Shown here piece after piece: positions 12,636-51,824 of a stretch of DNA of 64,000 nucleotides. Each line of letters begins with the position of its first letter. The stretch's first letter is position 1. The stretch is taken from the NCBI RefSeq assembly GCF_963921235.1, contig NC_086108.1:88786001-88850000 (forward strand), given 5' to 3'. The position numbers were made by a program, and so were the translations under genes. The notes under the pieces are model-generated. The model was not told the DNA's origin. It was given only the letters and a program-made list of their open reading frames with translations, and did no database searches. Source of the DNA: Mobula hypostoma. Lineage: Eukaryota.

Positions 12636-13212
12636 TCTTCTTGGCCCGAAATGTCAGCAGTTTACTCTATTCCATAGATGCTGCCTGATCTGTTGAATTT
12701 CACCAGAATTTTGTGTGTGGTTTTGCTCAGGAAAAGTATATTGTTGATTCATAATGCAGTTCCAAATGGAAATTGATTGAGTTACAAGAATCTAACTACA
12801 GTAACACAATTTAGAAACTATGAATCCATCATGATTTGGAAAAAAATGTACAGGGCAGATAGTTTGCCAGGAATATTTTATTATTTAAGAACACAGGGAA
12901 CCAAAGTAAAAAGCAGTTCCAAAGATTAACAACAACTTAACATTATTTTTCAATAGCTAATTGAATCAATTATTAGTTTTCTATTAGAATATTGAATACA
13001 TACATACTGTAACAGAGTTATATTTGGGTAAATGATAGCTATAACAAATGCAGTGGATATCACAATTTGAATGCATACATATTGTGAATGAATAGTAGCA
13101 GTACAACTTTGATACATGTTCATTTTAACTTGCCTGTCCTGTATTAAGTTCCAATACCTCCCGTAGTTCCAGGTAGAAGCAATGGCCTTTGTTATGGATG
13201 TATCGCTCCACT

Positions 13213-13259
13213 TTACATCAGCACTTTTTTACCTAGCCTGGCCATTTTAGTTTCTAAGG
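13213..13259 (-). CDS. PALMD: PALMD alternative terminal exon, (A)LETKMARLGKKVLM*
   Basis: TTTCCTCTTCAATCAACAG| acceptor at 13260-13261. Phase 1 matches the internal donor at 21777. Resembles the mammalian PALMD end ALRMRMAKLGKKVI. AATAAA (minus) at 12877-12882. Confidence 0.88.
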
Positions 13260-14209
13260 CTGTTGATTGAAGAGGAAACAAAGATGATTATTGTTACTTA
13301 TCATTCCAGGAAATGTTATAAACTTAACTAAATTTTGAAACTTAATGGCATAAGAAGAAATATACATACCACAGTATTATGCTGAAGCCTTAAGCACATG
13401 ATTAGTTGTGAGAAGCTGCCATGCGCTTAGAGCATAGAAAGGATATGTGCAAAGGTATTAGCGTATTAGATTAGTGAAGACTGAAGTTCCTGTTGTAACA
13501 GAGAACATTAACAGATTCTAAGTTCCTGTTGATTCAATATATTCTGTAAATAAAATCTTCAATTCATACTTCACATTAATTTTGAAACGCTCTGGGTTAA
13601 ATAACACCCAACACAATATCAATAATATTACCACTTTCATTGAAGTGCTACTGAAACAAACACACAATCCAAATTGTTGTCCATCAGAATGTGTCTGCCT
13701 TTGTCAGTCAAAATGTAATGACATAGTATATTTTGGAAAGGCAGAGTAATCCTATGCTGGGCTGAAATGGTATTTGTGAGCCTCTGCCAGTAGTTATTGT
13801 ATTAGACAAGGTATATATTTTGAAGCCAAGGTGGTATGTGACAGGCAGCTGCAAAACCTAAAGATAGTTAATTAAGTAATCTTGAATTTGACAAGAAAAA
13901 CATTGAAACATGTTTGCTTCACTAATATTATTCTGGGAAGGATATCTGCTGACCTTACCTGGTTTGGCCCAAATATGACTCCTGACTTATAGTAATCAGA
14001 TTGACTCAGAACTACTCTCCAAGTATCAAAATGCTACATTCACTATCACTTATTTATAATAACATTTTCTTGAATATTTAAAGTCAGAAAACAACTAAAG
14101 AATTTTCAACTTATTGTAATAACTTAAATAATTACATGTTTTATTTGTCTGCTTAAAGGCAAATGGGAAAGGCAAAGGATTCAGTATTTACCATTTTGCT
14201 TCAGTATTG

Positions 14210-15047
14210 CATAGAACCATAGAACCATAGAAACTACAGCACAGAAACAGGCCTTTTGGCCCTTCTTGGCTGTGCCGAACCATTTTCTGCCTAGCCCCAC
14301 TGACCTGCACACGGACCGTATCCCTCCATACACCTTCCATCCATGTATCTGTCTAATTTATTCTTAAATGTTAATAAAGAACCCGCATTTACCACCTCAT
14401 CTGGCAGCTCATTCCACACTCCCACCACTCTGTGTGAAGAAGCCCCCCCTAATGTTCCCTTTAAACTTTTCCCCCCTCACCCTTAACCCATGTCCTCTGG
14501 TTTTTTTCTCCCCTTGCCTCAGTGGAAAAAGCCTGCTTGTATTCACTCTATCTATACCCATCATAATTTTATATACCTCTATCAAATCTCCTGTCATTCT
14601 TCTACGCTCCAGGGAATAAAGTCCTAACCTATTCAACCTTTCTCTGTAACTGAGTTTCTCAAGTCCTGGCAACATCCTTGTAAACCTTCTCTGCACTCTT
14701 TCAACCTTATTTATATCCTTCCTGTAATTTGGTGACCAAAACTGAACACAGTACTCCAGATTCGGCCTCACCAATGCCTTATACAACCTCATCATAACAT
14801 TCCAACTCTTATACTCAATACTTTGATTAATAAAGGCCAATGTACCAAACGCTCTCTTTACGACCCTATCTACTTGTGACGCCACTTTTAGGGAATTTTG
14901 TATCTGTATTCCCAGATCCCTCTGTTCTACTGCACTCCTCAGTGCCTTACCATTAACCCTGTATGTACTACCTTGGTTTGTCCTTCCAACGTGCAATACC
15001 TCACACTTGTCTGTATTAAACTCCATCTGCCATTTCTCAGCCCATTC
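14210..15047 (-). mobile_element. Young 5'-truncated CR1 LINE
   Basis: ORF 14409-15026 (LVRPNLEYCVQFWSP) and (ATAGAACC)n terminal repeat. Confidence 0.88.
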
Positions 15048-16688
15048 ACCAGTGAAAATGGCCTTGGCAATTGTAGGGATGACTTAAAGCAGATTGAAAT
15101 GCTTGAGTGTATAGACATTAAGAAAGAGGATGTGCCAGAGCTGTTAAAGGTATTAAGTTAGGTAAGTCACTGGGACTGGACAAGAGATACCCTACAGTGG
15201 GAAGCGATGGAGGAGATCGCCGAGCCTCTGGCAATGGTCTTAACGGATGGAAAAGTACCAGAGGATTGGAAGGTTGTAAATGTTGTTCCCGTGTTCAAGA
15301 AAGGGTGTAGAGATAACCCAGAAAATTATAGAACAATGAGTCTTACTTCAGTGGTGGGCAAATTGTTGGAGAAGATCCTGAGAGACAGGATTTACGAGCA
15401 TTTGGAGAGATATAATCTAATTAGGATACTCAACATGGCTTTGTCAAGGCCATTTCGTGCCTTACAAGCCTGATTGAATTCGTTGAGGAGGAAACATAAT
15501 ACATTGATGAAGGTAGAGCAGTGAATGTAGTGTATATGGATTTCAGTCAGGCATTTAATAAGGTTCCCCATGCAAGGCTCATTCAGAAAGTAAGGAGGCA
15601 TGGGATCCAAGGAGACCTTGGTTTGTGAATCGAAAATTGGCCTGCACACAGAAGGGAAAGGCTGGTTGTAGATGGTTCGTACTCTGCATGGAGGACAGTG
15701 ACCAGTGGTGTTCTACAGGGATCTTTTCTGGGATCCCCTCCTCATTGTGATTTTTATAAATGACTTGGAGGAGGAAGTAGAAGGGTGGGTTAGTAAGTTT
15801 GCTGTTGACACAAAAGTTGGGGGTGTTGTGGATAGACTGGAGGGTTGTTAGAAGTTACAGCGGGACATCAATAGGATGCAGAACTGGGCTGCGAAGTGAC
15901 AGGTGGAATTCAACCCAGATAAGTGCGAAGTGTTCAATTTGGTAGGTCCAATGTGAAGCCAGAATATAATATTAATGATAAAACTCAGGGCAGCGTGGAG
16001 GATCAGTGAGATCTTGGGGTCCATGTCCATAGGGCACTCAAAGCTGCTGCGCAGGTTGACAGTGTTGTTAAGAAGGCGTATGGCATGATCGCCTTCATCA
16101 ACTTTGGGATTGAGTTCAAGAGCTGTGAGGTAATGTTAAAGCTATATAAAACCTCAGTTAGACCCCACTTGCAGTACTGTGTTCAGTTCTGGTCACCTCA
16201 CTACAGGAAGGATGTGGATAGTATAGAGAGAGTGCAGAGGAGATTTACAATGACGTTGGTTGGATTGGAGAGCAAGCCTTATGAGAATAGGTTGAGTGAA
16301 CTTTGCTGTTTCTCCTTGGAGCAATGGAGGATGAGAGATGACCTGATAGAGGTGTATAAGATGAAGAGAGACATTGATTTTGTGGATAGCCAGAGGCTTT
16401 TCCCCAGGCTTGAAATGGCTAACATGCGGGGGCATAGTTTTAAGGTGCTGAGAAGTAGGTACTCGGGGGATGTCAGAGGTAAGTGTGTGGAATGCTCTGC
16501 CAGCAACGGTGGTAGAGGCGGATACAATAGGGTCTTTTAAGAGACTCATAGATAGGTACATGGAGCTTAGAAAAATAGAGGGCTATGCAGTAGGGTAATT
16601 CTAGGCAATTCCTAGAGTAGATTACATGGTTGGTACAACATTGTGGGCTGAAGGGCTTGTAATGTGCTGTAGATTTCTATGATTCTAA
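15048..16688 (+). mobile_element. Degenerate CR1 LINE ORF2 fragment
   Basis: Frameshifted RT pieces (PENYRTMSLTSVVGK, VRPHLQYCVQFWSP) and 3' tail ...TTTCTATGATTCTA. Confidence 0.85.
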
Positions 16689-18234
16689 GAATAAGAGCTA
16701 TTACTTATTATTTGCAACAAATTATAAACTGAACTTGTATCTTTGCACTAAGTTCTTTTTACAATGGGAAGTGAGGTTATTTTCCAGGCAAAAGAGTGCA
16801 AACGTTTAACATAACATTCAGACTGAATAAAGGAAAAGGAAGAATACTTGCATATTTTTAAAGTTTATAACATATTTGTATTTAATCATTATCACTGTCA
16901 ACTGTGAATAGGGACATTTTAGTTTATTAAAGGAAGTATTGTGAGAGACAGTTGTCCATTTAAAGCAGTACTTTGTAAACTCAAAGTGAATTGACTTGCA
17001 GCTGAAAAGTGAGTTTCATGTCTTTTGCTAAAATCATCCTACAACCTGCATTAATATTTTACATAATAGCATATATTTTAGAAAGCTTAGGTATTAGAAT
17101 TATTAATGTGGACCAGACATAATGTATGTTAAATAGAGCATAGGATGTATAACATTAAAACACAGTAAGGCCCTTCGGTCCACAAGATTGTACTGACCTT
17201 TAATTTACTCTAAGATCAATCTAACTCTTCCTTCTTGCATCACTGCCCCTAATTTTCTATCATTCATGTATCTATCTAAGACTTTAATACTCCTAATGTA
17301 TCTGCTTTTACCTCTATCCCTGACAGGGCATACCATGGACCAACTACTCTTTCCCTGACATTCCCCCCCCCCCCCCACTTTCCTCCAATCACTTTAAAAT
17401 TATGCCACCTTGTATTAACCATTTCCACCCTTGAAAAAGGGCTCTGGCTGTCCTCTCCATCTATGCCTCTTATCATCTTGTCTACCTCTATCAGGTCACA
17501 TCTCATCCTCTTTCATTATAAATAATGTAATTATATTATAATAAAATCTGTTTTTGTCACTTTACATTTAATGCTGCGAAGTGAGTTGGTAAATTACAAA
17601 TTTTACACATATTGTTATATTTGCATACACATGCACTTAGAATTCCCTGATTTTCTCATCTTGTTAAGGTTCATGGATCAGTGGAATCAGAATTTTGCGC
17701 AATACTGACGCTGATTAATGCTCAGAGAGTTCAGTATTGGTGTGGTTAGCTGTACATACAGCAGATGTGCACATGTTTTTTTTTAAGACACACTGTCCTA
17801 TCTTGGCAAAATGTAGGTTCTAAGTTCCTTTACGTCTAACTGGAGCACATTTTCAGGCCATTGCTAAAGGGGAAGGTGTTAAGTATGAAAGCAAGGTAAC
17901 TAACCTTCCATGTCTAACTAATGGGAACAGTGGCAAAGTCTCAGAGAAATAATTAAACAAACATACAAGCATTTGGAAAGGCTCCTACATTCTCTTCTAG
18001 CATCTCATTTCATAAGCCATCCTGAAGACACTCATCCCACAAATTAATGAAGAGCTGGGGCATTTCTTTCTGAGATTACACCCCCACCAGCCAGCCACCC
18101 TGAGTTTCTGATCAGTAAATGATGTGGAGCTTGTGCATGAATGCAGTGCATTAAAATTACCCAGTACTTCTGCAGCTCAAGGTAGCTCTATTCTGCTCTC
18201 TAGACTAGTACAGGGCTTTATTTCCAATATATAA

Positions 18235-18510
18235 TTATTTGTTGGGATACAGCGTGGAATGGGCCCTTCCAGCCCTTGGAGATGTGCCCAGCAATCCCAG
18301 CAATTAAACCCTAGCCTAATCACAGGACAATTTACAATGACCAATTAACCTACTAGCCAGTACGTCTTTGGACTGTGGGAGGAAACTGGAGCACCTGGAG
18401 GAAACCCATGTGGTCATGGGGAGAACTTACATACTCCTTACAGGCAGCGTTGGGAATTAAACCTATGTCACTGGTTCTGTAAAGCATTGTGCTAACCACT
18501 GTGCCACAGT
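18235..18510 (-). mobile_element. tRNA-derived V-SINE (HE1-like)
   Basis: Minus-strand head GTGGCACAGTGGTTAGC and V-domain-like GGGTTTCCTCCAGGTGCTCCAGTTTCCTCCCACAG. Similar copies at about 24445-24610 and 60665-60968. Confidence 0.75.
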
Positions 18511-18716
18511 GTCACACCTATCACCATCCTTTCTCATAAATTATATTGTTTAATGGATGAAAAGCATATTAAAATAAAAAATAGAAATAAACTATTGATG
18601 ATAATCAACTGATTTGTTATGTATAGTAATGATGCATCTTGTATTCTTTTCATACAAAATAATCAGAAATATAAAGTAAATATGAAATCATAACAAAAGC
18701 AACTTCTTGAAAGCAA

Positions 18717-19199
18717 ACATGAGAAAATCTGCAGATGCTGGAAATTCAAGCAACACACATAAAATGCTGGTGGAACGCAGCAGGCCAGACAGCATCAATA
18801 GGAAGAAGCACAGTCGACGCTTCGGGTCGAGACCCTTTGTCAGGACAAATGGGAAAAAGAGATAGTAAGTGATTTGAAAGTGCGAGGTGGAGGGGGAGAC
18901 CCAAAATGATAGGAGAAGACAGGAGGGGGAGGGACGAAACTAAGGGCTAGGAAGTTGATTGGCAAAAGGAATACAAGGCTGGAGAATGGGGAGTATCAAA
19001 TTCCCAGGTCTTAGCTTCGTCCCTCCCCCTCCTGTCTTCTCCCATCATTTCGGGTCTCCCCCTCCCCCTTCCACTTCCAAATCACTTACTACCTCTTTTC
19101 TCCATTAGTCCTGACGAAGGGCCTCGACCCGAAATGTCGACTGTACTTCTTCCTATTGATGCTGCCTGGCCTGCTGCGTTCCACCTGCATTTTGTGTGT
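18717..19199. mobile_element. Penelope-derived inverted-repeat element, one hammerhead motif per arm, 13-bp TSD
   Basis: Arms about 18752-18953 and 19001-19199 are diverged reverse complements. TTCTTGAAAGCAA at 18704-18716 and 19200-19212. Confidence 0.85.
19107..19142 (+). ncRNA. Minimal type I hammerhead ribozyme motif
   Basis: AGTC-CTGACGA-AGGG-CCTCGA-CCC-GAAA-TG-TC-GACT. Core intact; the stem III palindrome is ATGT rather than ACGT. Confidence 0.55.
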
Positions 19200-19227
19200 T
19201 TCTTGAAAGCAACTTTAAATTATTTAA

Positions 19228-19305
19228 GCAACACACATAAAAGTTGCTGGTGAACGTAGCAAGCCAGGTAGCATCTCTAAGAAGAGGTACAGTCGTTTGT
19301 GTTTA
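19228..19305 (-). mobile_element. Short Penelope-derived insertion with 12-bp TSD
   Basis: TAAATTATTTAA at 19216-19227 and 19306-19317. Body matches the left arm of 61139-61231. Confidence 0.75.
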
Positions 19306-21088
19306 TAAATTATTTAAACATTGCAGTCCAAAAGCACGAACAATTAGGAATATTTTCCAGGCAGTTAATTGTCTTACACATCAAAAGTATAATACAGTCA
19401 TTATTTATGTTGCATCAGATATTTGTGGAGGTATGTCAATGCTGCAGAATATTTTTGTTTATATAACTATCAATAATTACGACAAGAATAAGAAGTTAAA
19501 TGAAATGTTTATTTACAGAAAGATGATCACATGAAAATTTATTTTACAATGTAATAGTGTTAGTGGTATGTTCAAACTACAGATCTACAGCATTATACCA
19601 GAATCAAGTGTACAAAAGTAGAAAAGCAAAAGAAGATTATTTGTATAGTTTGCATTTGATTTGCTGTTTGTCACTGACCGGTATTAATTTCAGAGATACT
19701 TTCAGAGTGATGAATTCTGTAGTGAAATGTTGACTGAGAGCAGCATATCTTCAGGATTATAGAATTAAGATTTTATTGTTTAAAGTTATAATTGGGATAG
19801 ATATTCAACACTGGATCACATTCCATGAAAAAGACAGAGATCAAGGTTTATCTGTACTTTAACTCTGTTGAATCCTAGCATTGACAATCAAAAACATCTA
19901 TCAGCTAGTCTTATCAAGTTCAATTTACCCATTCTTAACAGCATTGCAGTCAAGAAAGCTCCAAATTTTTGCTATCCCCTGTGCAAATAACTGCTTGCTG
20001 ACATCTTTGTCATAGGGTCACATCGTCATACAGGCCCTTTCGCCCATCAATTCCATGCTAATCATTAAGTATTTGTACTAATGCTATTTACCAGCACTTA
20101 TTCAGTTCTCTGCCTCAGCAGTTCATTGTGGGTTATCTCCATCCATTTCCCCATCAGATAGTGTATTCTAGATTCTAACCACACACTCTCTGAGGGAGAA
20201 AAGGTCTTCCTTAGATTTCCTTTCATCCCTTATCCTAACCCTATGCCATCTAGTTGTGGATACAGTGCAATGGGGAGAATCTTCCATCTCCATGATCCTC
20301 ATAATTTTGTGTATGCATACAGATCTCCCTGCAAACTCTTCCACTCCACGGAAAACAAAACCCGGTCCATTCAGTTTCTCCTTGAAACTGAAAACTCACA
20401 GGCAACAACCTCTGCGTCCTTAATAATGCAATGCTGTCATTGCTAAAGTGTGATGGCTAGAACTGTACACAGTACTCCATTGTGGCCTAACAATGCTACT
20501 GTAACTTCCCTGTTCTTATATTCTATGCCTTAGTCAATGAAGGAAATATCCCTCTGCCTCATTCACTACATTATCTACCTGTGCTGACATCTGTACAGAT
20601 AACATCATGTACAATTTGGTCTCCTTTCCTTCTGGAAAAGACTGATTGCAGAAAGAGTGAAGCAAAAATTCACCAGACTGGTTCCTGAGTTATCAGTCAT
20701 GTCTTACATGCTGTTATTGAGCAGACCTGAGCTCTAATCTCCAGAGTTTGAAAGGTTGAGATGTGTCCTCATTGAAGAACAGAAAATATTTTGAGGGCTT
20801 GACATAGGGCAGGTGCAGGGAGGGTGTTTCCCCTGGCTACTGAGTCTAGAATTAGCGGTAAGTGACAGGATATTCAAGAGGGAAATGAGTAAAGATTTCA
20901 TCATTCATTGGGAGATGCATATTTGAAATTCTCTATACTGGAGGAGTATGGAAGCTCAGATACTGTTACATTTAAAATAAAGATTGTAGATTTCTAGATA
21001 TTAGGGGGATGGGAAGGAAAACAATGTCTGAGGTAGAAGGTCTCATGTTTGTGGTAATGGAACAATGAGTGTGTGTATGCATATCAGC

Positions 21089-21152
21089 TCTCTCTCTCTC
21101 ACACACACACAAACTACATACACAACCATTTACACACACACACACACACACA
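21089..21152. repeat. (CT)n/(CA)n microsatellite
   Basis: Visible dinucleotide runs. Confidence 0.9.
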
Positions 21153-21733
21153 CCCTAGAGTCACACTCTTCATACTCATACACACAAACCACACAAAAGG
21201 CAGTTTGAAAGTAGATGGTGTTTGCAAGTTCAAGAGGGAATTTCTTAGAAATTTGTAAAGCAAATGATTAGAAGTCTTGGAAAATGCTGCGGTATAGATT
21301 GTTCTTCAAATGCTGGGAAAAGTGATGATAGACTTTTCTGTTCCTGTGAATTCTAATGTGCTCAGTGCAAAGTAGGACTTCCCTTCCTGTTATGCCATGG
21401 AGCCTTGCCATTAACCAAGGGGTCCGTGAATTCAAGGTTGGGAGCCCCTGGTGTAAAGCATGAAATATACCAGGAAGGTACGATTCCTGGTCAGATGTTG
21501 CAGAAGTGGACACTATGGAGTCTGTGCAATTGATAAGGTTTCCCATGCACAGTTAGGTTTTAATTACTTTCTTTGCCTTAAAGCTTGTTAGTGGATGAGT
21601 GGCGTAACATTAAAGAAAATAATAACCAGTAGCTTTACATTCAGGATACATGTTGTCCATTCTGCACAAGATTAACCCATTAGTAAGTAACAGCAAGAAA
21701 GGCTTTCCATTTCAAATATAGCTCAATAATTTG

Positions 21734-22890
21734 TCACATAATAGAACAACAACGACACTTCTGTTTGTTATTTGTACCTGACACTGTGGAGTCACTGTAG
21801 ATTCCATCTTTATCCACCTGGTCACCAGAATAATTTCTGTAGGGAGAATGATTATTGTCTCGGCCTGAGATCAAAATGGATTTCCTTGGGAGAGAGTTAT
21901 TCCCTGCAGATAGAGTTATGGCAGCATATGATGTTTTATGTATCTCATTCCCAGTTGAAAGAGGAACGGGATGGAATACAGGATTAGTGAGGTCATTTGC
22001 TTGATGTGGATTCACTTCATCATCCTCATCATCATCATCGCTGATCATGACCAGTTCTGCTCGGATCGCTCCTTCAAACCCTAAAACTTTGCTGGTTTCA
22101 TTCTCGTCATTGACGTTGTGGTAGCCCATGAAGACCATAGTAACTGGTTCCTCAGTGTCAATGACAGAAGGCGAGGAACGGCAAACATTAAACCCACTGT
22201 CTAAATTTTCAGACATAGTAGTAGCTCTGCCATCATGATTGAGTTCAGAATTGACAAACACGGCCTTGCGGTAATTGTCCCTTGGCGGGTGACAAGGAAG
22301 CTGTGCTGAATTCGGCTCATTTTCAGGTAATGATGACTCATAACTTTGTCGACTCTGGCTTCGTGTGGAACTCGGAGACCAGCAATTAGATATTGGGCAG
22401 GATAAGGAAGTAGTAGGAGTGACCATTGCCTGTTGATAACTGGGCAAATTCCTTTCCAGATCTGTGTCACCATCATTGGTTCGGTAAACTTGAGCCTTCA
22501 CTGGGTCATGCCTCTCAATTCCTTCACTTTCAGCCATGTTTTCTTGAATCCTCGGCTCAGAGTCCATCTGCTCATTGATAAACATTTTAGGATAGTAGGA
22601 GCTGCTGTAGGAACTTGAGTAAACTGGGGCATGGCAAGCCACAGGAATATTCGTCTGTTTCTCACCAGCCTTTTGTAACAATGCTTCCACTTCCTCATGA
22701 GTCATGTCACTGACACCATTCTGAATCAGTCTCCCATCACTATGCAAAGCATATACTGATTTCACCCCATCTTCATAGACCTTCACACCTTTGTTTTGGA
22801 TTTCATCGATCATCACTGGTGCAGTCGACAGAACGGTGCTTTCTCCTGTCTTCATATCCTTTTGGACATTGATTTCCACCGCAAACAAAG
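21734..22890 (-). CDS. PALMD: PALMD large exon. Read-through ends in the CaaX motif KQKCRCCSIM*; an internal donor at 21777 leads to the 13213-13259 exon
   Basis: TAG| acceptor at 22891-22893. Paralemmin-family motifs LFAVEINVQKDMKTGESTVLS, GVKVYEDG, EEVEALL, EPVTMVFMGY, IRAELVMI. Confidence 0.95.
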
Positions 22891-25072: not shown

Positions 25073-25192
25073 CTGCTTTGGAACCTCCTGAGCCTTGTGT
25101 TTCAAATTCTGGACTTGCTTTTCTCTGCTTTACCTGAGACTGATATTTTTTTGCAGGATTTGAAAATTCCGAGTGTACAGACTTTACCTGAT
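25073..25192 (-). CDS. PALMD: PALMD internal exon (NQVKSVHSEFSN...GSGGSKA)
   Basis: CATAG| acceptor, CAG|GTGGGT donor, 120 bp, phase 1-1. Joins in frame to give SKAALFAVEI (mammalian RKALYAMEI). Confidence 0.82.
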
Positions 25193-25289: not shown

Positions 25290-25314
25290 TTCGATCACTC
25301 TCGGCCTGTGCTGC
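25290..25314 (-). CDS. PALMD: PALMD 25-bp micro-exon (AAQAESDR)
   Basis: TTTACAG| acceptor and GAA|GTAAGA donor. Phase 0 to 1, which is needed to join the flanking exons. Confidence 0.78.
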
Positions 25315-30946: not shown

Positions 30947-31061
30947 CTTAATTATATCTGCTGTCGATCTTTCTGTTGCTTTCAGTTTTTTCAGTAACAG
31001 TTGTTCATTAGATGAAATTTGGGCTTCTTGGTTTTCAAGAGCTTTTATTTCTTCTTCGAGC
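30947..31061 (-). CDS. PALMD: PALMD coiled-coil exon (RLEEEIKALENQEAQISSNEQLLLKKLKATERSTADIIK)
   Basis: TTTACAG| and AAG|GTAAAT, 115 bp, phase 2 to 0. Similar to mammalian RLEKEIQDLEKAELQISTKEEAILKKLKSIERTTEDIIR. Not in the ORF track. Confidence 0.93.
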
Positions 31062-47047: not shown

Positions 47048-47178
47048 CGGAGAATCTTTTGTTCCATTTGCTTGGATTGGTGCTGGTCTTCCAGATGCTG
47101 CTTTCTTATTGCCTCTTGTTCTTGAGGAGTGATGTTGGCCACTCCTTCCAGAAGCCATTGTTCTCTCAAAGTCTTTGA
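47048..47178 (-). CDS. PALMD: PALMD exon (SKTLREQWLLEGVAN...QMEQKILR)
   Basis: AACAG| and CCG|GTAAGC, 131 bp, phase 0 to 2. Paralemmin motif LRE.WLL.G. Confidence 0.93.
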
Positions 47179-48130: not shown

Positions 48131-48211
48131 CTTTAAGTGCTTAAGCTTCAGCTTCTCCTCATCCACTTCAAACCGTTGTCTTGTGATTTTCTCCTGGACT
48201 TTCCTTTTTTC
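48131..48211 (-). CDS. PALMD: PALMD exon (EKRKVQEKITRQRFEVDEEKLKLKHLK)
   Basis: GGCAG| and AAG|GTACAG, 81 bp, phase 0-0. Similar to mammalian DKRKIQEEISQKRLKIEEDKLKHQHLK. Confidence 0.93.
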
Positions 48212-48572: not shown

Positions 48573-51535
48573 ATAGAAACATAGAAACATAGAAAATAGG
48601 TGCAGGGGTAGGCCATTCGGCCCTTCGAGCCTGCACCGCCATTTATTATGATCATGGCTGATCATCCAACTCAGAACCCCGCCCCAGCCTTCCCTCCATA
48701 CCCCCTGACCCCTGTAGCCACAAGGGCCATATCTAACTTCCTCTTAAACACAGCCAATGAACCGGCCTCAACAGTTTGCTGTGGCAGAGAATTCCACAGA
48801 TTCACCACTCTCTGTGTGAAGAAGTTTTTCCTAATCTCGGTCCTAAAAGGCTTCCCCTCTATCCTCAAACTGTGACCCCTCGTTCTGGACCTCCCCAACA
48901 TCGGGAACAATCTTCCCGCATCTAGCCTGTCCAATCCCTTTAGGATCTTATACGTTTCAATCAGATCCCCCCTCAATCTTCTAAATTCCAACGAGTACAA
49001 GCCCAGTTCATCCAGTCTTTCTTCATATGAAAGACCTGCCATCCCAGGAATCAATCTGGTGAACCTTCTTTGTACTCCCTCTATGGCAAAGATGTCTTTC
49101 CTCAGATTAGGGGACCAAAACTGCACACAATACTCCGGGTGTGGTCTCACCAAGGCCTTGTACAACTGCAGTAGTACCTCCCTGCTCCTGTACTCGAATC
49201 CTCTCGCTATAAATGCCAGCATACCGTTCGCCTTTTTCACCGCCTGCTGTACCTGCATGCCCACTTTCAATGACTGGTGTATAATGACACCCAGGTCTCG
49301 TTGCACCTCCCCTTTTCCTAATCGGCCACCATTCAGATAATAATCTGTTTTCCTATTTTTGCCACCAAAGTGGATAACTTCACATTTATCCACATTAAAT
49401 TGCATCTGCCATGAGTTTGCCCACTCACCCAACCTATCCAAGTCACCCTGCATCCTCTTAGCATCCTCCTCACTGCTAACACTGCCACCCAGCTTCGTGT
49501 CATCCGCAAACTTGGAGATGCTGCATTTAATTCCCTCATCCAAGTCATTAATATATATTGTAAACAACTGGGGTCCCAGCACTGAGCCTTGCGGTACCCC
49601 ACTAGTCACCGCCTGCCATTCTGAAAAGGTCCCGTTTATTCCCACTCTTTGCTTCCTGTCTGCTAACCAATTCTCCACCCACACCAATACCTTACCCCCA
49701 ATATCGTGTGCTTTAAGTTTGCACACTAATCTCCTGTGTGGGACCTTGTCAAAAGCCTTTTGAAAATCCAAATATACCACATCCACTGGTTCTCCCCTAT
49801 CCACTCTACTAGTTACATCCTCAAAAAATTCTATGAGATTCGTCAGACATGATTTTCCTTTCACAAATCCATGCTGACTTTGTCCGATCATTTCACCGCT
49901 TTCCAAATGTGCTGTTATCACATCCTTGATAACTGACTCCAGCAGTTTCCCCACCACCGACGTTAGGCTAACCGGCCTATAATTCCCCGGTTTCTCTCTC
50001 CCTCCTTTTTTAAAAAGTGGGGTTACATTAGCCACCCTCCAATCCTCAGGAACTAGTCCAGAATCTAACGAGTTTTGAAAAATTATCACTAATGCATCCA
50101 CTATTTCTTGGGCTACTTCCTTAAGCACTCTGAGATGCAGACCATCTGGCCCTGGGGATTTATCTGCCTTCAATCCCTTCAATTTACCTAACACCACTTC
50201 CCTACTAACATGTATTTCACTCAGTTCCTCCATCTCACTGGACCCTCTGTCCCTTACTATTTCTGGAAGATTATTTATGTCCTCCTTAGTGAAGACAGAA
50301 CCAAAGTAATTATTCAATTGGTCTGCCATGTCCTTGCTCCCCATAATCAATTCACCTGTTTCTGTCTGCAGGGGACCTACATTTGTCTTTATCAGTCTTT
50401 TCCTTTTTACATATCTATAAAAGCTTTTACAGTCCGTTTTTATGTTCTCTGCCAGTTTTCTCTCATAATCTTTTTTCCCCTTCCTAATTAAGCCCTTTGT
50501 CCTCCTCTGCTGAACTCTGAATTTCTCCCAGTCCTCAGGTGAGCCACTTTCTCTGGCTAATTTGTATGCTACTTCTTTGGAATTGATACTATCCCTAATT
50601 TCTCTTGTCAGCCACGGGTGCACTACCTTCCTTGATTTATTCTTTTGCCAAACTGGGATGAACAATTGTTGTAGTTCATCCATGCAACCTTTAAATGCCT
50701 GCCATTGCATATCCACCGTCAATCCTTTAAGTGTCATTTGCCAGTCTATCTTAGCTAATTCACGACTCATACCTTCAAAGTTACCCCTCTTTAAGTTCAG
50801 AACCTTTGTTTCTGAATTAACTATGTCACTCTCCATGTTAATGAAGAATTCCACCATATTATGGTCACTCTTACCCAAGGGGCCTCTCACGACAAGATCG
50901 CTAATTAACCCTTCCTCATTGCTCAAAACCCAGTCCAGAATAGCCTGCTCTCTAGTCGGTTCCTCGACATGTTGGTTCAAAAAACCATCCCACATACATT
51001 CCAAGAAATCCTCTTCCTCAGCACCTTTACCAATTTGGTTCACCCAGTCTACATGTAGATTGAAGTCACCCATTATAACTGCTGTTCCTTTATTGCACAC
51101 ATTTCTAATTTCCTGTTTAATACCATCTCCGACCTCACTACTACTGTTAGGTGGCCTGTACACAACTCCCACCAGCGTCTTCTGCCCCTTAGTGTTACGC
51201 AGCTCTACCCATATCGATTCCACATCTTCCCGGCTTATGTCCTTCCTTTCTATTGCGTTAATCTCTTTTTTAACCAGCAACGCCACCCCACCTCCCCTTC
51301 CTTCATGTCTATCCCTCCTGAATATTGAATATCCCTGAATGTTGAGCTCCCATCCCTGGTCACCCTGGAGCCATGTCTCTGTGATCCCAACTATATCATA
51401 ATCATTAATAACAATCTGCACTTTCAATTCATCCACCTTATTACGAATGCTCCTTGCATTGACACATAAAGCCTTCAGGCGCTCTTTTACAACTCTCTTA
51501 GCCCTTTTTAATGCTTGCCCTGGATTTGTCGGCCT
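48573..51535 (-). mobile_element. Young CR1 LINE, 5'-truncated just upstream of the endonuclease domain
   Basis: (ATAGAAAC)n 3' repeat, 3' UTR and uninterrupted ORF2; no ORF1. The 5' boundary is approximate. Confidence 0.93.
48671..51436 (-). CDS. CR1 ORF2: APE endonuclease plus reverse transcriptase, 921 aa, no stops
   Basis: [50 protein letters not shown]. The frame stays open upstream (LCVNARSIRNK). Confidence 0.95.
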   Translation of the reverse strand: MDELKVQIVINDYDIVGITETWLQGDQGWELNIQGYSIFRRDRHEGRGGGVALLVKKEINAIERKDISREDVESIWVELRNTKGQKTLVGVVYRPPNSSSEVGDGIKQEIRNVCNKGTAVIMGDFNLHVDWVNQIGKGAEEEDFLECMWDGFLNQHVEEPTREQAILDWVLSNEEGLISDLVVRGPLGKSDHNMVEFFINMESDIVNSETKVLNLKRGNFEGMSRELAKIDWQMTLKGLTVDMQWQAFKGCMDELQQLFIPVWQKNKSRKVVHPWLTREIRDSINSKEVAYKLARESGSPEDWEKFRVQQRRTKGLIRKGKKDYERKLAENIKTDCKSFYRYVKRKRLIKTNVGPLQTETGELIMGSKDMADQLNNYFGSVFTKEDINNLPEIVRDRGSSEMEELSEIHVSREVVLGKLKGLKADKSPGPDGLHLRVLKEVAQEIVDALVIIFQNSLDSGLVPEDWRVANVTPLFKKGGREKPGNYRPVSLTSVVGKLLESVIKDVITAHLESGEMIGQSQHGFVKGKSCLTNLIEFFEDVTSRVDRGEPVDVVYLDFQKAFDKVPHRRLVCKLKAHDIGGKVLVWVENWLADRKQRVGINGTFSEWQAVTSGVPQGSVLGPQLFTIYINDLDEGIKCSISKFADDTKLGGSVSSEEDAKRMQGDLDRLGEWANSWQMQFNVDKCEVIHFGGKNRKTDYYLNGGRLGKGEVQRDLGVIIHQSLKVGMQVQQAVKKANGMLAFIARGFEYRSREVLLQLYKALVRPHPEYCVQFWSPNLRKDIFAIEGVQRRFTRLIPGMAGLSYEERLDELGLYSLEFRRLRGDLIETYKILKGLDRLDAGRLFPMLGRSRTRGHSLRIEGKPFRTEIRKNFFTQRVVNLWNSLPQQTVEAGSLAVFKRKLDMALVATGVRGYGGKAGAGF

Positions 51536-51824
51536 GTTTTGGTTTGTTTATCAACGTAACCATCTTGATTGTTTTTGAAGCTATCATTAGTGATGCTGTA
51601 TTATTCAGGAGGTGGGAGTCAGAGATTCTTGGTGTCTTACATGTTAAGAGATACGAAGAGAGCTGTCAGAACACACGCAGGGCAGGTTTCCATCGCAACG
51701 CTGCTCTTGTGGTCACATATCGATGTTGGATGCAGCTCAAATCCATTTATAGTGCACATAAGTTCAGTTTGCAAAGGAAACTGCTCAGTCACAGGTTTTG
51801 TAGTGGGGGATTACAGACGAATAC

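Follow-up and report, generated by a model that had tools for sequence, protein, structure and literature searches.

The palmdelphin locus of Mobula hypostoma

The 64-kb stretch of the devil ray Mobula hypostoma analysed here (contig NC_086108.1; 'the window' in the following, meaning the stretch at its full length) carries on its minus strand the orthologue of PALMD (palmdelphin), a gene of the paralemmin family, with seven exons. The frame assembled from these exons is identical over 543 amino acids to P0126, the RefSeq model of the same species, starting at residue 16 of that model; the first 15 residues of PALMD, upstream of 48211, were not found in the 64-kb window. This contribution concerns the 3' end of the gene, where a large exon (exon G) contains an internal splice donor and a short coding exon (exon H) follows 8.5 kb further on. 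Conceptual translation around this one donor shows two mutually exclusive protein ends. The features of the gene are given below in window positions; a slash within a motif marks the splice site.

48131..48211, minus strand: PALMD coding exon, 81 bp, the first coding exon inside the window (AG/GT ends, identity to P0126)
47048..47178, minus strand: PALMD coding exon, 131 bp (AG/GT ends, identity to P0126)
30947..31061, minus strand: PALMD coding exon, 115 bp (AG/GT ends, identity to P0126)
25290..25314, minus strand: PALMD coding micro-exon, 25 bp (AG/GT ends, identity to P0126)
25073..25192, minus strand: PALMD coding exon, 120 bp, with a phase-1 donor into exon G (AG/GT ends, identity to P0126)
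21778..22890, minus strand: 1113 bp of exon G common to the two forms (Pfam Paralemmin domain, MIF-type motif)
21772..21780, minus strand: internal phase-1 splice donor CAG/GTACAA, whose G/GT codon encodes the first Gly in the CaaX tail (sequence)
21734..21777, minus strand: read-through tail GTNNKQKCRCCSIM-stop with a basic stretch, two upstream Cys and the CaaX box CSIM (conserved in skate-type and chimaera proteins)
21559..21564, minus strand: ATTAAA, nearest candidate polyadenylation (poly(A)) signal of the read-through form (motif match only)
13260..21777, minus strand: alternative intron, 8.5 kb, containing fragments of long interspersed nuclear elements (LINEs) and an inverted repeat like a miniature inverted-repeat transposable element (MITE) (sequence)
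13213..13259, minus strand: coding part of exon H, 47 bp, ALETKMARLGKKVLM-stop (frame, homology to exon H tails)
12877..12882, minus strand: AATAAA, candidate poly(A) signal of the exon H form, ~330 nt past the stop and followed by a T-rich stretch (motif match only)

Exon G starts at 22890 behind a TAG acceptor (preceding sequence ...TTTTCTGAATAG) and matches the Pfam Paralemmin family PF03285 with an E value of 6.4e-44 (151 bits, cut-off 27.3). Paralemmins are recognised by small 5' exons in front of a large exon G, by a MIF motif in which F and G are invariant, and by a CaaX terminus with three cysteines (PMC3405040). The ray gene has five small 5' exons (25-131 bp) in the window, followed by 1113 bp up to the internal donor. 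A MIF-type motif, MVFMG, with the invariant F and G present, lies at ~22138-22124 within PVTMVFMGY (~22147-22121) of exon G, and on read-through of the donor the protein ends in CRCCSIM-stop, with three cysteines among the last seven residues. In a tree of 39 rows (quick IQ-TREE search, each sequence trimmed after residue 700, midpoint root) the Mobula gene is found among chondrichthyan sequences with a support of 99 in the Shimodaira-Hasegawa-like approximate likelihood ratio test (SH-aLRT), within a PALMD clade of 21 rows (SH-aLRT 98). The clades of named PALM1 (SH-aLRT 100) and named PALM2 sequences (99) are separate from PALMD; the PALM3 rows are joined weakly (52).

Two alternative C-termini around one internal donor

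The first-pass annotation of this stretch had claimed an internal donor at 21777, a read-through to a CaaX end and an in-frame splice over 8.5 kb to 13259, and all three were borne out. The donor CAG/GTACAA has its last exonic base at 21778 and its GT at 21777-21776, 14 codons ahead of the CaaX stop. The frame that ignores it continues with GTNNKQKCRCCSIM to a stop at 21736-21734, and the protein thus ends in K-C-R-C-C-S-I-M. Exon H is preceded by a pyrimidine-rich acceptor (...TTTCCTCTTCAATCAACAG, CAG) and joins the internal donor in phase 1 and in frame, and the resulting frame is the one identical to P0126. The tail ALETKMARLGKKVLM encoded by exon H is basic, free of cysteines and ends in KKVL(M) where tetrapods have KKVI. 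The 47-bp exon had also been described as absent from the list of open reading frames, which is correct, and as easy to miss, which did not hold: it is already annotated, and six of six Mobula models end in exon H. What public annotation misses is the CaaX form rather than the distal exon.

As a chance control, all 288 minus-strand AG/GT sites of the window were considered. Three of them read to a Cxxx-stop within 30 codons, and a single one, the PALMD donor, gives three cysteines in the last seven residues. Exon H tails of eight other vertebrates served as tblastn queries, and for seven of them the best match in the 64 kb was the 47-bp exon, with E values of 1e-8 for shark, 7e-4 to 1e-3 for three tetrapods, 0.004 for chimaera, 0.016 for lungfish and 0.09 for sturgeon; the best match of the gar tail in the window was not on this exon. 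Beyond the ATTAAA candidate of the read-through form, the next AATAAA is located at 19777.

Further details were noted around the two splice sites. A second in-frame AG is present at 13253, 6 nt within exon H, and a second donor-like site, CAG/GTGGAT, follows 21818, 40 nt upstream of the used donor; no gene model seen uses either of them. Scored by the donor consensus, the site after 21818 reaches 6/9, equal to the used donor. Catshark models vary by one residue at the exon G junction. By eye, both tails end aliphatic-aliphatic-Met; we do not claim that exon H arose by duplication and decay of the CaaX tail.

Conservation of the two tails

The chondrichthyan sample comprised 60 sequences, namely 58 models from 23 named species and two skate-type contigs (an unrelated 54-residue sequence, P0141, was dropped). 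Their C-termini are of the exon H type in 47/60, of the CaaX type in 3/60 and of another type in 10/60 cases. Conservation of the distal exon in relatives, which the first-pass annotation had set as a check, was found throughout, the exon H tail being present in 23/23 named species. The CaaX tails of the two skate-type contigs are identical to the window tail at 10/14 and 9/14 positions, and the CaaX model of the elephant shark shares 7 of its last 9 residues with it; in skate-type and elephant-shark CaaX tails the point of divergence from the exon H form is the same residue. This stretch would be intron sequence if it were unused. Because the cysteine cluster and the position of the stop, 20-45 bases past the donor, are kept in rays, skates and chimaera, we infer that the CaaX tail is probably a translated product. 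The support for the exon H form in Mobula consists of RefSeq models, that for the CaaX form of conservation. When short chondrichthyan fragments were searched for the CaaX tail, neither of two candidates scored. Four sequencing runs of one organism contain 0.76 of the sampled words of 21400-22890; since the portion ahead of the donor would by itself account for about 0.74 (1083 of 1461 words), this value is not counted in favour of the CaaX form.

Exon H tails are also present in models of sturgeon, paddlefish, gar and lungfish, and in diverged form in bichir. Models of sturgeons and bowfin have CaaX tails at the same junction, and the sturgeons carry both tails.

A third kind of C-terminus at or near the junction was observed in P0014, P0015 and P0159 (bamboo sharks), P0009 (Heptranchias) and P0132 and P0133 (Narcine). 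The bamboo-shark tail matches a LINE at positions 49029-49097 of the window (E 3e-4 to 6e-3), which suggests an exonised repeat. Since other shark and ray models join the donor to additional exons, of which one is LINE-like, we regard the donor as the decision point.

As to teleosts, PMC3405040 (2012) reports exon H for each of the four tetrapods studied and for no teleost out of five; it suggests that teleost duplicate genes split the two roles, and the elephant-shark fragments were unusable there. An exon H profile applied to the final 20 residues of each of 146 cluster representatives gave eight clear hits (30.6 to 46.0), the next score being 11.1 and the median -0.6. Three of the eight are teleosts by name (Aldrovandia, Chanos and Triplophysa). 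Triplophysa has a RefSeq isoform pair of an exon H-like and a CaaX form, and Paramormyrops a pair of a weakly scoring 13-residue tail (9.9) and a CaaX form; in each pair the isoforms part at the same junction. The teleost PALMD models with exon H-like tails comprise P0172, P0176, P0184/P0318 and P0190/P0319, with paired CaaX isoforms in two species. This suggests that some teleosts have retained exon H, contrary to the statement derived from five of them.

Age and origin of donor and distal exon

Exon H occurs at one junction in chondrichthyans, non-teleost ray-finned fish, some teleosts, lungfish and tetrapods, and for this reason is most likely to have been present in the ancestor of jawed vertebrates. 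The two-tail arrangement is probably as old as their last common ancestor. The first-pass annotation had proposed that both termini are intact and that the arrangement is of this age, a proposal supported by the PALMD orthology, the homology of exon H and the tails kept in rays, skates and chimaera.

The donor itself may be older than PALMD. A Gly at -13/-14 of the CaaX tail was found in 20/23 PALMD, 7/8 PALM2, 1/13 PALM1, 0/4 PALM3 and 0/3 cyclostome sequences, many of the PALMD rows being birds, and as such non-independent, and the rows outside the tree being grouped by likeness. A coelacanth PALM2 model departs from the CaaX form at the junction Gly. One ancestral donor common to PALM2 and PALMD would be the simplest reading of these protein ends. 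We lean, with some reserve, towards a history in which the donor predates PALMD and goes back to the PALMD/PALM2 ancestor of the early vertebrate genome duplications, PALMD gained exon H before the jawed-vertebrate split, both tails were selected in cartilaginous fish and a diverged exon H survives in several teleost lineages.

Proposed mechanism and alternative explanations

Composite terminal exons in general are governed by a competition between recognition of the donor and intronic polyadenylation. We propose, at a probability of about 85%, that the devil-ray PALMD gene has a composite last exon of the mammalian type, in which use of the donor yields the exon H tail and non-use the CaaX tail, and that exon H was present in the jawed-vertebrate ancestor. 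If the donor is used, the transcript would be spliced to exon H and the protein would receive a basic tail without cysteines; if the donor is ignored, translation would continue to the terminal K-C-R-C-C-S-I-M. By analogy with the family, the cysteine of the CaaX box would be prenylated and the two upstream cysteines palmitoylated, placing the read-through protein at the plasma membrane. The exon H protein would presumably be unlipidated, mainly cytosolic (a localisation carried over from mammals) and the major form. The ratio of the two forms would then be set by the recognition of a moderate donor versus cleavage and polyadenylation just inside the intron.

Several observations weigh against this proposal. 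A CaaX tail is found in just one of the 58 named chondrichthyan models and in none of the six from Mobula, and no shark (Selachii) CaaX tail was seen among the 60 chondrichthyan sequences. The skate-type CaaX proteins begin at the exon G acceptor and may derive from genomic DNA; they therefore show conservation, not expression, and use of the CaaX form in the ray is likewise suggested by conservation. One Narcine model ends directly after the junction Gly, which could indicate a loss of the CaaX tail in that lineage. Every gene model compared is an automatic prediction, the read-through poly(A) site is a candidate by motif match only, and the PALMD tree comes from a quick search with a midpoint root.

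A different function of the switch is conceivable, if rather doubtful: both forms would exist, and the exon H tail would be a motif for partner binding or weak membrane binding, the switch trading interactions as much as location. Such a role is compatible with the two-tail explanation and does not exclude it. Exon H is strongly conserved, at 13/14 residues across tetrapods (PMC3405040), and recognisable in rays; its tail is basic, with a net charge of +3 in Mobula and +4 to +5 elsewhere, and the KKVI form retains the ability to promote dendrite branching (PMC10896979). However, the KKVI form is described as cytosolic (PMC8589083), and we found no amphipathic-helix signal over shuffled sequences in any of six tails (p 0.21 to 0.77). 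Exon H as an amphipathic helix was rejected on these values.

It is unlikely that rays make the exon H form alone and that the CaaX read-through is a leftover of the end that paralemmins had ancestrally, preserved in part by its overlap with the donor. Such a relic would fit the 57 of 58 named chondrichthyan models without a CaaX tail, the Narcine model terminating directly after the Gly and the great rarity of the CaaX form in one mammalian cell type (PMC8589083). Only ~6 intronic bases are constrained by the donor; ray, skate and chimaera nonetheless keep the cysteine cluster, which lies 20-40 bases further along, and the position of the stop, and rare read-through forms may readily be missed by automatic annotation.

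As to the naming of the gene, RefSeq labels P0126 'paralemmin-1' and its relatives palmdelphin, paralemmin-1-like or paralemmin-2. Eight chondrichthyan PALMD orthologues (P0124, P0126, P0127, P0002, P0006, P0010, P0013 and P0016) stand under the names paralemmin-1 or paralemmin-2, and the five of them that were placed in the tree all fall within the PALMD clade. That the gene is PALM1 or PALM2, as the names of the identical M. hypostoma model and of other shark and ray models would have it, and resembles PALMD superficially, is hardly credible and already contradicted by its position with PALMD in the tree (SH-aLRT 98), by the exon H tail common to named PALMD proteins and by the exon H profile, on which only PALMD-type proteins scored high among the 146 further representatives.

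Relation to the known switch and to comparable systems

With the composite last exon as the preferred explanation, the mechanism of the switch is already known; what is added here is a probable older date, a predicted unannotated isoform and the occurrence of the two tails in chondrichthyans and some teleosts. PALMD has been described in two splice variants, having the CaaX motif at the end of exon G or a downstream exon H that ends in KKVI (PMC3405040). In human endothelial cells the KKVI form is 300-fold above the CaaX form, and it is cytosolic (PMC8589083). In the literature searched, which left out most subscription journals, we found no treatment of the switch in chondrichthyans beyond PMC3405040.

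The ray gene resembles tetrapod PALMD in its small 5' exons, its large exon G with an internal donor just ahead of the CaaX tail, its exon H tail of the type AL...K/RM..LGKKV and its three-cysteine CaaX end on read-through. The two differ in that exon H of chondrichthyans has 15 residues with ET at positions 3-4 and a Met end (KKVLM, KKVMM or KKLVM), whereas that of tetrapods has 14 residues with RM at positions 3-4 and a KKVI end. Expression and localisation of tetrapod PALMD have been tested in mammals, whereas the ray gene is known from its sequence.

In lamin A/C and in secreted versus membrane immunoglobulin M (IgM), an internal donor and a nearby poly(A) site likewise decide whether a membrane anchor is encoded. 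These genes are unrelated to PALMD, and there the spliced form gains the anchor, whereas in PALMD the spliced form loses it. PALM2 appears to have a donor at the corresponding place, 14 residues ahead of its end. PALM2 exchanges its anchor for the product of a large downstream gene, usually by skipping the whole last exon, whereas PALMD exchanges it for an exon of 14-15 residues. The fusion to AKAP2 replaces the CaaX anchor (preprint 10.64898/2026.09.03.749080), and a long-read Palm2-Akap2 transcript of a mouse mutant contains the last Palm2 exon minus its final 14 codons, spliced to Akap2 (bioRxiv 10.64898/2026.08.18.745582).

PALMD has been linked to calcific aortic valve stenosis, to endothelial nuclear resilience and to the shape of neural progenitors, and different roles have been assigned to its two tails (PMC8589083; PMC10896979). 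Should both tails prove to be kept in cartilaginous fish, the CaaX form, rare as it is, would be an ancient selected product, neither splicing noise nor a mammalian innovation, and exon H a feature of jawed vertebrates rather than of tetrapods. The analysis points to an isoform that the annotation of sharks and rays lacks and to RefSeq genes with wrong names; it refines the history of a known switch and adds no new mechanism.

Other features of the window

Downstream of exon H, an exon-like stretch is present at 784-657 on the minus strand, with a pyrimidine-rich CAG acceptor and a GAG/GTGGGC donor. Its open frame is purine-rich, in phase 1 (which fits the PALMD donors) and single-copy in the window. 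As a possible exon of a downstream gene (PDG4) it found no support in protein searches (0/10 candidates; the top atlas score of 0.76 was under the useful range). No AKAP2-like sequence was found in the 64-kb window, and the AKAP2/PDG-like tails of 12 long fusion models had no match in the window outside exon G. The sturgeon model P0166 joins PALMD to a long downstream sequence that is AKAP2-like by eye, and this part is unmatched in the window. Rfam gave no matches across the window.

An inverted repeat at 18755-19199, within the alternative intron, has arms of 205 nt that are 89% complementary; several further places in the window match its ends, as in a MITE, and in the pre-mRNA it could fold into a long hairpin. 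An open frame of 958 codons at 48671-51547 on the minus strand, within a PALMD intron, contains endonuclease-like and reverse-transcriptase-like motifs and is apparently a young, CR1-like LINE.

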